This document shows, one piece after another, positions 29,359 to 32,062 of a DNA stretch of 54,704 nucleotides. Position 1 is the stretch's first letter, and each line of letters opens with the position of its first letter. The notes beneath the pieces were generated by a model. The model had not been told where the DNA came from and did not search any database. It saw only the letters and a program-made list of their open reading frames with translations. Made by a program: the position numbers and the translations under genes. Source of the stretch: a virus (Duplodnaviria; Caudoviricetes); IMG/VR virus record IMGVR_UViG_3300034349_000034, positions 1 to 54,704 of that record, one strand, 5' to 3'.

Positions 29359-29366
29359 CAACGAAC

Positions 29367-29584
29367 CCACCGGGGCACCGGGTGGCGGAGTTATCAGCAA
29401 ACACAGGTGCAAGCGCTGGACGATGCCCCCGCCTCAGGGGATGAGGCCACGACCAGCGCGACGGAGGTAGGCGACCTAGAAGTGCGGAGAGATTGATGGT
29501 CGCTAAACGTCTCTCCCCTCCGGCTCTACCTGTCCGGCCGATAGATGACCCGAACACATGAGGGCGGCCTGGCAACCCCGGTGG
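29367..29584 (+). ncRNA. Putative multi-helix structured RNA with kissing-loop potential
   Basis: Nested complementary segments traced by eye (see findings); no credible ORF. Confidence 0.6.
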
Positions 29585-29619
29585 TGGCTGCTGTAGGGCA
29601 GTAAGCGCCAGCGGGACAC

Positions 29620-29741
29620 GGCCCTGTAGCTCAACGGCAGAGCGCCCCGGACTGGACAGAGGAGACGTCTCCTCTCGACGGTCCCCCGACTTGATCAACC
29701 GGGAACAGGGTAGGTAGCAGGTTCAATTCCTGCCAGGGCCT
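29620..29741 (+). ncRNA. tRNA-like element T2 (branched insert replacing the anticodon arm)
   Basis: GGCCCTG/CAGGGCC; TAGCTCAACGGCAGAGC; ~70-nt middle; GCAGG-TTCAATT-CCTGC. Confidence 0.8.
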
Positions 29742-29772
29742 CGCACGCAACACCGCACACCTGTGAGGTCAC

Positions 29773-30627
29773 ATGCTCAAGAAGATCGCGCTCATCCTGG
29801 CCGTCGCCGTCGGCGGCATCCTCGGCTTCGACTTGCCCGCCCAGGCGTCCGGCGGTCCCTACTACTACGCCGGGTTCGACCAGGACTTGTCGCCCGCGCA
29901 GGCGTCGGTGGTCACCGAGGTCAAGGGCAGCATGCCCGCCTACTCGATCGTGACCACGGCCGGAACCCACGCCCTCGCGGAATTCGCCATCACCACCGAC
30001 AACGGCGCTACGCCAGTCGCCGCGCCCACCCGGGCAGGCGTCGTGGAGGTCGGCTACGAGAACACCAACGGCGGCGGCGTCAAGGTGTTCGTCAGCCGGT
30101 TCGTCAACTCCGTATGGGGTGGTAGCTACGTCGGCGTCGGTGACGGGTTCGTGGCCTGCACGAAGACGTCCCCGTACTCGTGCGGCACCCCCGCCAACCT
30201 GTCCCCCGGCGACGCCCTCACCTCCGGTGCCTCCTACATCTGGACCGTGACCTACTCGTCCGGTTCCTGGTGGCTGGCCGTCCAGCCGAGCGCCGGATGT
30301 CCGGCCGGGAAGACCTGCTTCCTGGGCCGCTACCCCGGCACCCTGTGGTCGGCGGCATCACCTCCGGTCGCTTTCACCCGCCCCGACTACGTCCGCGCGT
30401 TCGGCGAGGTCTACAACACCGCGCCGACCGCATCGGTCTGCACCAACATGGGCGACGGCAACTACGGCACGGCCACCACGGGCGCAGTGGTCGGCTCGGT
30501 CACCTACACGGGCTTGCCGACCAGCGACGTCCAGCTCACCGCCAGCACGGTCTCCGACCCCACCATGTATTCGGCGGCCAGCCTGTCCGGCCGCACGTTC
30601 CGCTACGGTGGTCCGGGGTCCTGCTAA
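29773..30627 (+). CDS. Secreted neprosin-family (glutamic peptidase G3-like) protein
   Basis: Signal peptide ending AQA; YYYAG, HALAE, VEVGY, DGFV, WWL..LGRYP..LW, AFGEV, CTNMGDG, FRYGGPG.C. Confidence 0.75.
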   Translation: MLKKIALILAVAVGGILGFDLPAQASGGPYYYAGFDQDLSPAQASVVTEVKGSMPAYSIVTTAGTHALAEFAITTDNGATPVAAPTRAGVVEVGYENTNGGGVKVFVSRFVNSVWGGSYVGVGDGFVACTKTSPYSCGTPANLSPGDALTSGASYIWTVTYSSGSWWLAVQPSAGCPAGKTCFLGRYPGTLWSAASPPVAFTRPDYVRAFGEVYNTAPTASVCTNMGDGNYGTATTGAVVGSVTYTGLPTSDVQLTASTVSDPTMYSAASLSGRTFRYGGPGSC

Positions 30628-30715
30628 GACCCCTGAGGGGCGCGGCCAGGTAGTAATGCCTGAAGCAAGCCCGACGGCAAGCCCGGAATGCAGAGCCCGG
30701 GACGCCCCTCACCCC

Positions 30716-30810
30716 GGGGATATAGCTCAACGGCAGAGCAGCAGAGCGGTCCAGGAAGTTACGACCTTGGGCTTCAGCGCTAGACGCAGGTTCAACTCCT
30801 GCCTTCCCCT
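30716..30810 (+). ncRNA. tRNA-like element T3 (elongated anticodon arm)
   Basis: GGGGA/TCCCC acceptor (5 bp plus 2 mismatches); TAGCTCAACGGCAGAGC; GCAGG-TTCAACT-CCTGC. Confidence 0.75.
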
Positions 30811-30905
30811 CGCAGAGGAACACCAGGGACCGACACACGGGACTGACCCCGCAGCCGGACACTCACCCAGGTGCCAACCAACGCCCTCGCCTTGAGTAAG
30901 CGAGG

Positions 30906-31009
30906 GGTCCTGTAGCTCAGCAGAGCGCCCCTCTGGATGGACGGGAATGCTGTGGATAGAGCACCTGCCTCACGGCAGGAGGTCGGCGGTTCGAATCCGT
31001 CCAGGGCCA
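30906..31009 (+). tRNA. tRNA-like element T4 (insert in D region; 6-nt anticodon loop CTCACG)
   Basis: GGTCCTG/CAGGGCC-A; CCTGC-CTCACG-GCAGG; AGGTC; GGCGG-TTCGAAT-CCGTC. Confidence 0.75.
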
Positions 31010-31196
31010 CGAGGTGACCACCGTGTTCGTACGTGAGGGGACCGAGAGCAAAAGCCGCTAGAACGGCCGGTAAAGCTCGGCACGACGTACGGGACGGCCG
31101 ACGGGACCTCGTAGTCCAGGGGTGTGATGGTGCCGGGTGAGCCGGTGTAATGGCAGTTAATGACCCGTCCACCCCTGGATACACAACAACTGAATA

Positions 31197-31301
31197 CGCC
31201 TCGTGGCCCAAAGGGGAAGGGCAGCGGTGCGCTGGGAGGCAGACAGAGGCCGACGAGCAGCACACCGAACGAGTGGAGGGTTCAAGTCCCTCCCGAGGCG
31301 C
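31197..31301 (+). ncRNA. tRNA-like element T5 (elongated anticodon arm; 7+6-bp acceptor/T helix)
   Basis: CGCCTCG/CGAGGCG; GCCC..GGGC D arm; CGGTG/CACCG closing an insert; GGAGGG-TTCAAGT-CCCTCC. Confidence 0.75.
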
Positions 31302-31422
31302 GAGGTGGCGACCGGGGCACGTCCCCGCGACGCAAACGACGGAGAGTTGGCCACCCCTGGTAACAGGAACTGGTGATGAACCGCGAGGGGATGCATACCC
31401 GGACGGCGAAGAGCCGTAGTAC

Positions 31423-31492
31423 TGCTGTGAAGCTCTGGAGGTGGAGCGCCCCCTAACCCGGGGAAGACGGGGTTCAACTCCCCGCGCAGCAC
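31423..31492 (+). tRNA. tRNA-like element T6 (4-bp anticodon stem, loop CTAACCC)
   Basis: TGCTGTG/CGCAGCA; GCTC..GAGC; CCCC-CTAACCC-GGGG; CGGGG-TTCAACT-CCCCG. Confidence 0.7.
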
Positions 31493-31706
31493 GGATGCAG
31501 GGGAAGGCTGGGCACGCCCGATGCGAGTGATCGTGCTGACGTGCTCATGATGCCCAAACCTGCTGTCGACCTGACTGCACACCGCATAGGAGAAAGCGGC
31601 GGGACAGGTCGGCGGGTCGCCGGGATGCCCGTACGGACTGCCCCCGTGGCCACGGCGTGGAGTCGTGTCCCGGCGACCTACCCCTAGGACCCTTGGAGGA
31701 GGGTAG

Positions 31707-31868
31707 ATGGCGAAGGGGACAGGCTTCGTTCCGTGCACAACATGCGGCGGGACGGGCGCGACGAACGTGGATGAGATCTACGTTGACCCGAAGGACAAGC
31801 AGACGAAGACGCGGCGGGTGCGCAGGGTGTGCACGGCGTGCGGTGGTCGGGGCGGGTTCCACGTCTGA
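31707..31868 (+). CDS. 53-aa DnaJ-type zinc-finger microprotein (not in ORF track)
   Basis: MAKGTGFVPCTTCGGTG...VCTACGGRGGFHV; RBS GGAGGAGG. Confidence 0.75.
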   Translation: MAKGTGFVPCTTCGGTGATNVDEIYVDPKDKQTKTRRVRRVCTACGGRGGFHV

Positions 31869-32062
31869 CCACATCAGTCACTCGTTTTTGATCATGGGGG
31901 CGGCGGGTGTCGAAGCCTTCCGCTCTACGATCCCGAGCGCCCTGGGCGTATGCCCCTCGGGATGTGTCACCCCCTGCCGTGCGTTGCCCGCAGAACGCGG
32001 GGCCGCCGAGGCTCACGGGCGTCGGAGCGGTACTGAACGCGGACTCCACGGCAGGGGCTCAA

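Follow-up and report, generated by a model that had tools for sequence, protein, structure and literature searches.

The array of transfer RNA (tRNA)-like elements studied here raises the question of what lies between its units, i.e., whether the spacers are RNAs in their own right and whether they are separated from each other at the tRNA-like units. The array is part of a complete soil phage genome of 54,704 bases (IMG/VR record IMGVR_UViG_3300034349_000034; in the following, the window is this whole sequence) with high GC content (~68%) and direct terminal repeats. It is encoded on the + strand between the terminase genes (25340-27623) and the portal gene (34308-36221), and the map of open reading frames (ORFs) places all features from 28482 on onto the + strand. 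Seven tRNA-like units (T1 to T7) were called by ARAGORN with inserts allowed. An initial annotation of positions 29359 to 32062 had proposed that the spacers are multi-helix RNAs and that one long transcript is cut at the tRNA-like units to release them, as in mitochondrial tRNA punctuation. Sequence comparison gives solid support to the view that the spacers are conserved folded RNA modules, shared with about twenty related phages, and the processing model appears plausible.

Related loci were collected from IMG/VR by a portal search. It yielded 40 loci with arrays of this kind, at portal identities of 73-82%, as well as an outlier at 38%. Based on blastn and nhmmer, spacer pieces recur in these relatives as discrete modules: 6 of the 7 spacers contribute recurring pieces, and compensatory base changes are found in 5. 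The per-module sequence sets for the covariation alignments comprise 5-22 sequences and were taken from the IMG/VR loci. The stems listed in the initial annotation are present at their places, four of them being recovered by an inverted-repeat scan, and the relatives carry covarying structures, i.e., the conservation on which that proposal had been made to depend is present.

Respective statistics can be followed for module G (31611-31682; + strand, like all features below unless stated otherwise), a hairpin of 28 pairs with an internal loop and the invariant tip CCCGUGGCCACGGCG. Among 18 sequences, 14/28 pairs are compensated and 98.4% of cells are paired, compared to 84.6% after shuffling and 38-50% if partners are slid by 1-3 columns. 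None of 500 shuffles reaches its covariation score, which corroborates the stem reported for 31613-31678. G was found in 27 loci, and its core is present in 23 IMG/VR contigs and in 0 GTDB genomes. In 27/27 loci, G has a strong ribosome-binding site and start codon within ~10-45 nucleotides (nt) on its 3' side, whatever the ORF encodes. The ORFs 3' of G belong to several unrelated families, so that G is without a constant downstream gene family.

Similar support is observed for three further modules. H2 (31971-32057; 19 loci) is a multi-stem domain and H1 (31930-31963) the hairpin that corresponds to helices 1 and 2 of alignment A3; jointly, 17/34 of their pairs are compensated with 94.9% of cells paired (14 sequences), which bears out the stem at 31971-32057. 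For H1, the respective values are 7/11 pairs and 100% of cells. H2 is followed by a family of ORFs of ~240 amino acids (aa) in all cases, with or without a tRNA-like unit in between. The stem claimed for 31105-31179 is backed by the covariation of module E (31113-31181), a long hairpin with conserved interior, where 10/23 pairs are compensated (5 sequences). Module C (30860-30905) abuts T4 and forms an H-type pseudoknot, i.e., the loop of its hairpin (30885-30905) pairs with 30860-30865. Here, 5/6 hairpin pairs are compensated (21 sequences), while the pseudoknot helix is 92.9% paired; three sequences have A-U in place of G-C, and C-G is swapped for G-C once. Taking hairpin and pseudoknot together, 96.4% of cells are paired, and the covariation score is 0.456 vs. 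0.142, with 0/500 shuffles reaching 0.456.

The first spacer (S1) holds module A (29366-29459), which begins directly after a tRNA-like unit and consists of local hairpins at 29366-29386 and 29413-29459 (7/29 pairs compensated; 6 sequences), and module B (29576-29616) directly 5' of the next unit, with an invariant inner hairpin and a covarying outer stem (9/17 pairs; 7 sequences). The 23-mer core of B has matches in 6 IMG/VR contigs and none in GTDB genomes; like the core of G, it is restricted to this phage clade. The segment inserted in S1, A2 (29462-29560), has a counterpart in a single relative (L030). Module D (31021-31097) is a long hairpin with variable tip, and its segment opens with GAGGUGACCACC right after a tRNA-like unit. 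A stem had been reported for 31021-31085; it is present, and 7/19 pairs are compensated (9 sequences), but the support is weaker with a covariation term of +0.47. Module F (31350-31422), directly 5' of a tRNA-like unit, is conserved mainly in sequence (2/16 pairs; 5 sequences).

Between T6 and G, conservation takes another form. Hairpin 1 of spacer S6 (31497-31563; from single-sequence folds) is preceded by GGAU adjoining the tRNA-like unit, and hairpin 2 (31565-31613) reads GUCGACC...GGUCGGC. Hairpin 1 shows at least 5 terminal pairs in 13/14 distinct relatives with 12 different stem sequences. For hairpin 2, at least 7 terminal pairs are found in 11/14 distinct relatives with 10 different stems, where the search pattern alone fixes most of the first 7 pairs. 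That is, the flanks are conserved (GGAU|GCA...UGC|U|GUCGACC...GGUCGGC) and the interiors vary freely, and of the structure described for 31496-31563 the outer stem is retained in relatives. The branched hairpin S2 (30634-30711), located between an ORF stop and T3 and closed by a 9-bp (base pair) stem, is real in sequence and unique to this genome, as no homologue was found anywhere in the relatives.

Outside the region covered by the initial annotation, the long hairpin P (28904-29010) lies between ORFs of 138 and 73 aa. P has a folding z-score of -4.44 (0/200 shuffles as low), is found in 24 loci, shows 13/31 compensated pairs (22 sequences) and includes the highly conserved stretch CGGTCTGTCAACCC; it seems to be an element of the same kind as the spacer modules. 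Searched with Rfam 15, the spacers have no match at gathering score, and only tRNA matches are obtained for the window and 7 relatives (136 kb). At E<=10 within 28300-32400, other families are found far below threshold only. Among these, bacterial Y RNA (YrlA) was rejected given its score of 18.5 bits, where 69 is required for gathering, and the lack of a TROVE/Ro60 match in the genome. The spacers were also considered as degenerate tRNAs and this was dismissed, since the Rfam tRNA model matches only T1-T4 and T7 in 28300-32400 (E<=10). In total, we count at least 9 new covarying structured RNA motifs, none of them in Rfam.

Next to the structures themselves, the alignments provide information about the folding molecule. 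Summed by hand over the alignments of G, H1/H2, C, E, D and B, the predicted pairs comprise 158 G:U/U:G cells compared to 18 A:C/C:A cells. Given that G:U is far above A:C, it is the + strand RNA that folds, while its complement would not. This argues for RNA as the folding molecule rather than a site in double-stranded DNA. Coding is argued against by indels of 1-2 nt and by small frames that do not persist. Two candidates were discarded in this respect, namely a GTG ORF at the start of D, which is not kept in relative L013, and an ATG frame inside A, which is broken by a 2-nt indel. The report that most spacers lack ORFs agrees with this, i.e., coding-like GC content at third codon positions (GC3) is found for + strand spacer ORFs only in 29773-30627 and 31707-31868. 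We also note that the spacer starts at 31011-31022 and 31302-31313, following tRNA-like units, read Shine-Dalgarno-like GAGGUG(A/G)C(C/G)ACC; the short frame after these starts is not conserved among the relatives.

All seven units keep a 7-bp acceptor stem, D arm and T arm (ARAGORN folds, alignment A1), and the T arm is nearly invariant (GGTTCRANTCC in six units, AGTTCAAGTCC in T1). In contrast to these parts, 6/7 units are aberrant, either by an odd loop or extra sequence in the anticodon region or in the D loop (T4). T1 (29263-29359; ARAGORN; 42.0 bits for the Rfam tRNA model) combines an odd anticodon loop with a long extra arm. Within T2 (29620-29742; 44.6 bits; fold), a 59-nt stretch replaces 9 central positions of the anticodon arm, and T7 (32063-32170; 49.1 bits) has 41 nt in place of the 7-nt anticodon loop. 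T3 (30716-30811; 37.5 bits) was called by ARAGORN with an insert, as was T5 (31198-31301; also by fold), which is below the Rfam threshold. T4 (30906-31010; ARAGORN and fold) carries a 36-nt D-loop insert and is a partial Rfam match of 24.4 bits. T6 (31423-31492; ARAGORN), 70 nt long, has a 7-nt loop but a C at position 37. Rfam reports four tRNAs with large insertions, i.e., 4/7 units exceed the tRNA threshold.

The relatives show a similar picture. Matches of the tRNA model occur in 20/20 related records tested, the locus maps place arrays upstream of the portal gene, and a 7-nt anticodon loop cannot be fitted to 64 of 100 distinct tRNA-like units of the clade. Most of the tRNA-like units thus look non-decoding. 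The 73-nt homologues of T4 (L003:5797-5869 and similar) have a 6-bp stem with UCAC tetraloop at the place of the anticodon loop and can therefore not decode; the stems of this tRNA-like partner of C covary among relatives. With regard to the 3' ends, a single C is encoded after the discriminator base in 7/7 units (29359, 29742, 30811, 31010, 31301, 31492, 32170). A full CCA is encoded in no unit of the window and in some relatives.

We then relate modules to tRNA-like units by the distances between their borders, after extending each module to the full length of its model. In 18/24 matches, 0-1 nt separate the end of C from the following tRNA-like unit; H2 ends -1 to 0 nt before such a unit in 11/19 loci, B -1 to 4 nt before it in 6/7 and F 0 nt before it in 4/5 cases. 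Modules on the other side behave alike, i.e., A starts 0 to -2 nt after a unit in 6/7 and D 0 nt after it in 6/9 cases. The tRNA-like units adjoining H2, A, D, F and B are mutually unrelated (median pairwise identity 0.41-0.56), and the coincidence of borders is therefore not just one inherited block. Respective breakpoints are also visible in blastn, where 51/237 ends of high-scoring segment pairs are at most 4 nt from a tRNA-like border compared to 4.2% expected.

Upstream of the array, the sigma-70-type promoter at 28422-28450 (TTGACA, 17 nt, TAGCGT) that had been pointed out by the initial annotation is present, and in 14/14 aligned sequences TTGACA is invariant and TANNNT retained at fixed spacing. 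An ORF on the minus strand (28069-28320) lies upstream of it. The promoter is probably the start of the rightward transcript. In a consensus scan, nothing resembling a terminator was found on the + strand of 27600-34400, and a single weak candidate for an internal promoter was found at 32190. Of the sequencing runs listed as containing this DNA, one is a DNA run, possibly the source, and none is an RNA run. G was considered as an intrinsic terminator; this was rejected given CUACC and then the ribosome-binding site after the hairpin as well as the scan result.

The explanation we favour, with about an even chance of being right, is tRNA punctuation, i.e., that modules would be cut from one long transcript at the tRNA-like units in the fashion of plant-mitochondrial t-elements. 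It builds on the structures with their conservation and covariation, on the strand, on the coincidence of borders and on the conserved promoter; that the modules are co-transcribed, cut apart and stable once released is what we infer in addition. Under this model, the promoter at 28422 would drive a single long rightward transcript, in which every tRNA-like unit would be cleaved on its 5' side by host RNase P and on its 3' side by RNase Z or a comparable enzyme. This would release A-A2-B, C, D-E and F as structured RNAs free of ORFs, plus two short messenger RNAs (mRNAs) with folded ends. The mRNA of the 284-aa ORF would end in S2, and that of the 53-aa ORF would carry hairpin 1, hairpin 2 and G at its start and H1-H2 at its end. 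Hairpin 1 would then be four nt from the new 5' end of the latter, with S2 and H2 4-5 nt from the new 3' ends. Invariant loops, conserved interiors and the pseudoknot point to specific partners over mere bulk structure.

Several observations weigh against this explanation, among them folding energy. We computed z-scores from 200 dinucleotide shuffles per whole spacer, cut at the ends of tRNA-like units or ORFs. The resulting values are -0.74 (S1), -2.54 (S2), -0.86 (S3), -2.43 (S4), -1.70 (S5), -2.32 (S6) and -0.96 (S7). Their mean of -1.65 is below that of size-matched coding windows from the same genome (-0.56; n=49; one-sided Mann-Whitney test, p 0.009). The single values against shuffled controls, a comparison that the initial annotation had suggested, are modest (-0.74 to -2.54). 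Scores of -2 to -3 for spacer 'cores' are biased because their ends were chosen at stems. Whole-spacer z-scores between -0.7 and -2.5 are unremarkable, and folding energy by itself is modest evidence. Perfect inverted repeats with arms of at least 9 (30634-30711, 31115-31179, 31615-31678, 31971-32057) are mildly, i.e., ~3-fold, enriched, given 4 in 1158 spacer nt (3.45 per kb) vs. 1.19 per kb outside 28899-32170.

Further points against it concern single modules and their borders. The structure described for 29367-29584 has conserved local hairpins, but its long-range closing stem is not kept among the relatives: 29367-29375 and 29576-29584 form a perfect 9-bp closure in this genome, while relatives carry A but not B, or B but not A, each locally paired. 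S1 is therefore a row of modules (A, the inserted A2, B) rather than one enclosed domain. The covariation of D and A is thin and the case for them weaker, and for 30628-30715, 30812-30860, 31302-31352 and 31869-31928, where no homologue was found, the structures come from single-sequence folding only. C travels with one particular tRNA-like unit (identity of the partners 0.77), so its abutment is largely inherited and not independent; furthermore, its hairpin extends up to position -1 of T4 and could hinder RNase P. Module borders were defined from this window, and since the loci are related, border and breakpoint counts cannot be taken as independent. Immediately 3' of G, H and P there are ORFs, i.e., these modules and could be purely cis-acting mRNA structures.

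Finally, H2 has no detectable tRNA-like unit after it in 8/19 loci, and therefore H2 at least is independent of such a border. In 5 of these 8 loci (L010, L026, L027, L030, L033), H2 is directly followed by a conserved leader with the ribosome-binding site of the ORF, while the other three differ. This leader reads AACGUC...GCUGACAG...GGAGGAG (L010:1463-1544, L026:7580-7660, L030:7691-7768, L033:2928 onward). Given the leader in place of the tRNA-like unit, the latter is here an exact presence/absence difference. The original proposal of tRNA punctuation is partly supported: the spacers are conserved RNA structures, module ends coincide with tRNA-like borders and the promoter is present, while the single 218-nt domain finds no support and the exceptions of H2 speak against a strict form.

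These points have to be weighed together with other explanations of the same array. The modules might serve in cis only, i.e., within an mRNA or operon as T7-type RNase III sites, as 5'/3' exonuclease blocks or as shields against Rho/RNase E, with no free functional RNA. A T7-type RNase III site is an intercistronic hairpin of ~20 or more pairs with an internal loop, and both G (28 pairs with internal loop) and P (31 pairs) are of this kind. The constant position of G 5' of a ribosome-binding site and start codon (27/27 loci), of H2 before the ~240-aa ORF family with or without tRNA-like unit, and of P between two ORFs would be explained, as would hairpins 1 and 2 of S6, which keep their shape but not their sequence. 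We nevertheless regard a role restricted to cis as rather unlikely, since A-B, C, D-E and F are located between two tRNA-like units with no ORF to serve, and the tip of G, the inner hairpin of B, the interiors of E and H2 and the pseudoknot of C exceed the needs of a generic block. Alternatively, an uncut composite of tRNA-like unit and module could mimic tRNA and act as decoy or sponge for host tRNA-binding enzymes or defence nucleases. C fits such a composite, as it is co-inherited with its tRNA-like unit at a distance of 0-1 nt and this partner has covarying stems and a 6-bp stem closed by UCAC; variability of the array among close relatives, as known for accessory loci, agrees as well. The idea is quite improbable in our opinion, given that H2, A, D, F and B combine with unrelated tRNA-like units, that H2 also occurs without one, and that neither a defence-related partner gene was identified nor a target is known.

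Two explanations do without functional RNA products. If the array were a decaying tRNA cluster of pseudogenes and leftover spacers, with stems due to chance at 68% GC or to shared descent, then the modest whole-spacer z-scores, the mere ~3-fold enrichment of perfect inverted repeats and the four spacer pieces without homologue would be expected. Dozens of double substitutions that preserve pairing would not, nor would 95-98% paired cells compared to ~84% when shuffled and 38-50% when slid, nor the presence of G and P in all 24 region-spanning loci, which renders decay very improbable. DNA-level inverted repeats, i.e., protein-binding palindromes or hairpins of recombination or replication, could account for the perfect palindrome CCGTGGCCACGG in the tip of G and for the clustering of homology breakpoints in the region. 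They are hard to reconcile with 158 G:U-type vs. 18 A:C-type cells, with stems that covary while half-site sequences are not kept, and with asymmetric internal loops and a pseudoknot; we give this explanation next to no credence.

Compared with known systems, the punctuation model has its closest logic in plant mitochondria, where the ends of mRNAs and other RNAs are generated by RNase P and RNase Z at t-elements (PMC1920247). As described there, t-elements are non-canonical tRNA-like cloverleaves with a GGTTCRANYCC T arm at RNA ends; the phage units share this motif and abut modules (PMC1920247). The systems differ in that the array belongs to a phage and not to an organelle and has seven units clustered in 3 kb. 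They also differ in that units are here interleaved with conserved structured RNAs free of ORFs and not mainly with mRNAs. In murine gammaherpesvirus 68, hairpins linked to tRNA-like elements, the tRNA-miRNA-encoded RNAs (TMERs), are released by tRNase Z (PMC4045068). TMERs resemble the array as a viral cluster of non-decoding tRNA-like elements with hairpins (PMC4045068). In contrast, each TMER has its own RNA polymerase III promoter and its hairpins are precursors of miRNAs, while a single bacterial-type promoter is likely here. The phage modules also flank tRNA-like units on both sides and are larger and branched.

Within phages, RNAC and RNAD of T4 are located in the tRNA gene cluster and mature alongside the tRNAs. 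In contrast to the array, the tRNAs of T4 decode, there are two extra RNAs only, and these have no sequence or Rfam relation to the modules. Both are described as small stable phage-encoded RNAs with no known function (PMC9697503). Large structured RNAs of phages and prophages, i.e., GOLLD and ROOL, are described as 'often near tRNA islands', and GOLLD sometimes has tRNAs inside (bioRxiv 10.1101/2024.12.08.627333). They differ from the modules, which have no Rfam match (window, 7 relatives), measure 40-200 nt vs. 500-800 nt and are split by tRNA-like units. A spacer freed by tRNA processing is also known from Escherichia coli, where the 3' external transcribed spacer (3'ETS) of the leuZ transcript acts as a sponge for small RNAs. 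In contrast to the highly folded phage modules, it is short, mostly linear, Hfq-dependent and part of a cellular operon. None of t-elements, TMERs, T4 RNAC/RNAD and GOLLD/ROOL is identical to this array, and a superficial literature search gave no description of such an array in actinophages.

The array is a clear candidate for punctuation by tRNA-like units in a phage; such processing is known from mitochondria and a single herpesvirus. Should cleavage be confirmed, phages would use non-decoding tRNA mimics as handles to package and exchange small structured RNAs, and a search for binding partners of the released RNAs would be opened; the invariant loops are concrete handles for pull-down. 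A further-reaching reading, which we consider unlikely, is that of an RNA-based accessory locus, where the non-decoding tRNA-like units would serve as universal handles for processing and also as recombination points, to release rapidly reshuffled small structured RNAs (pseudoknot C, B, E, G, H2) that each bind a host or phage factor. Such binding would act in take-over or counter-defence, and the locus would be a bacterial-virus counterpart of the herpesvirus TMERs.

According to the locus maps, the clade shows a fixed frame around a variable middle. The frame starts with an ORF of ~120 aa, hairpin P and an ORF of ~66-74 aa. The middle is formed by tRNA-like units and modules A-F. It is followed by hairpin 1, hairpin 2, G, a ribosome-binding site and small ORFs of several unrelated families, and finally by H1-H2, an optional tRNA-like unit, the ~240-aa ORF family and the portal gene. 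Among region-spanning loci, G and P are present in 24/24 and C in 23, while the composition of the array differs strongly between close relatives. The portal protein is closest, among cultured phages, to that of Actinoplanes phage phiAsp2 (38.7% identity), and further relatives in the portal comparison are actinophages. The regions of phiAsp2 that correspond to the array have no tRNA and no array, and blastn of 28400-33000 against cultured phages gave no match. No portal relatives were found in GTDB genomes, and therefore there is no prophage and no host clue.

Two ORFs are located within the array. The first, 284 aa (29773-30627; GC3 0.92), has no family assigned, i.e., no Pfam or PHROG match and no IMG/VR relatives were found. 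The second, 53 aa (31707-31868; GC3 0.83), encodes a zinc ribbon with two CxxCxGxG motifs and weak matches to DnaJ-type zinc fingers. At this position after G, several relatives have an ORF for a small and strongly basic protein whose start resembles KKPxKNVxKLI (L011:6085-6279, L019:6752-6892, L031:4106-4315, L038 ~6503-6740), and elsewhere unrelated small ORFs are found. No relatives of the 237-aa ORF were found in IMG/VR. A single tRNA-Gly(acc) called by ARAGORN lies far from the array on the minus strand (18014-18084) and is below the Rfam tRNA threshold. Other genes of the window encode a Macro-domain protein (33366-33959), an 1836-aa protein with NUDIX domain (38057-43567) and, on the minus strand, a DUF1810 protein (46198-46896); the Macro-domain and NUDIX proteins suggest handling of ADP-ribose or related nucleotides.

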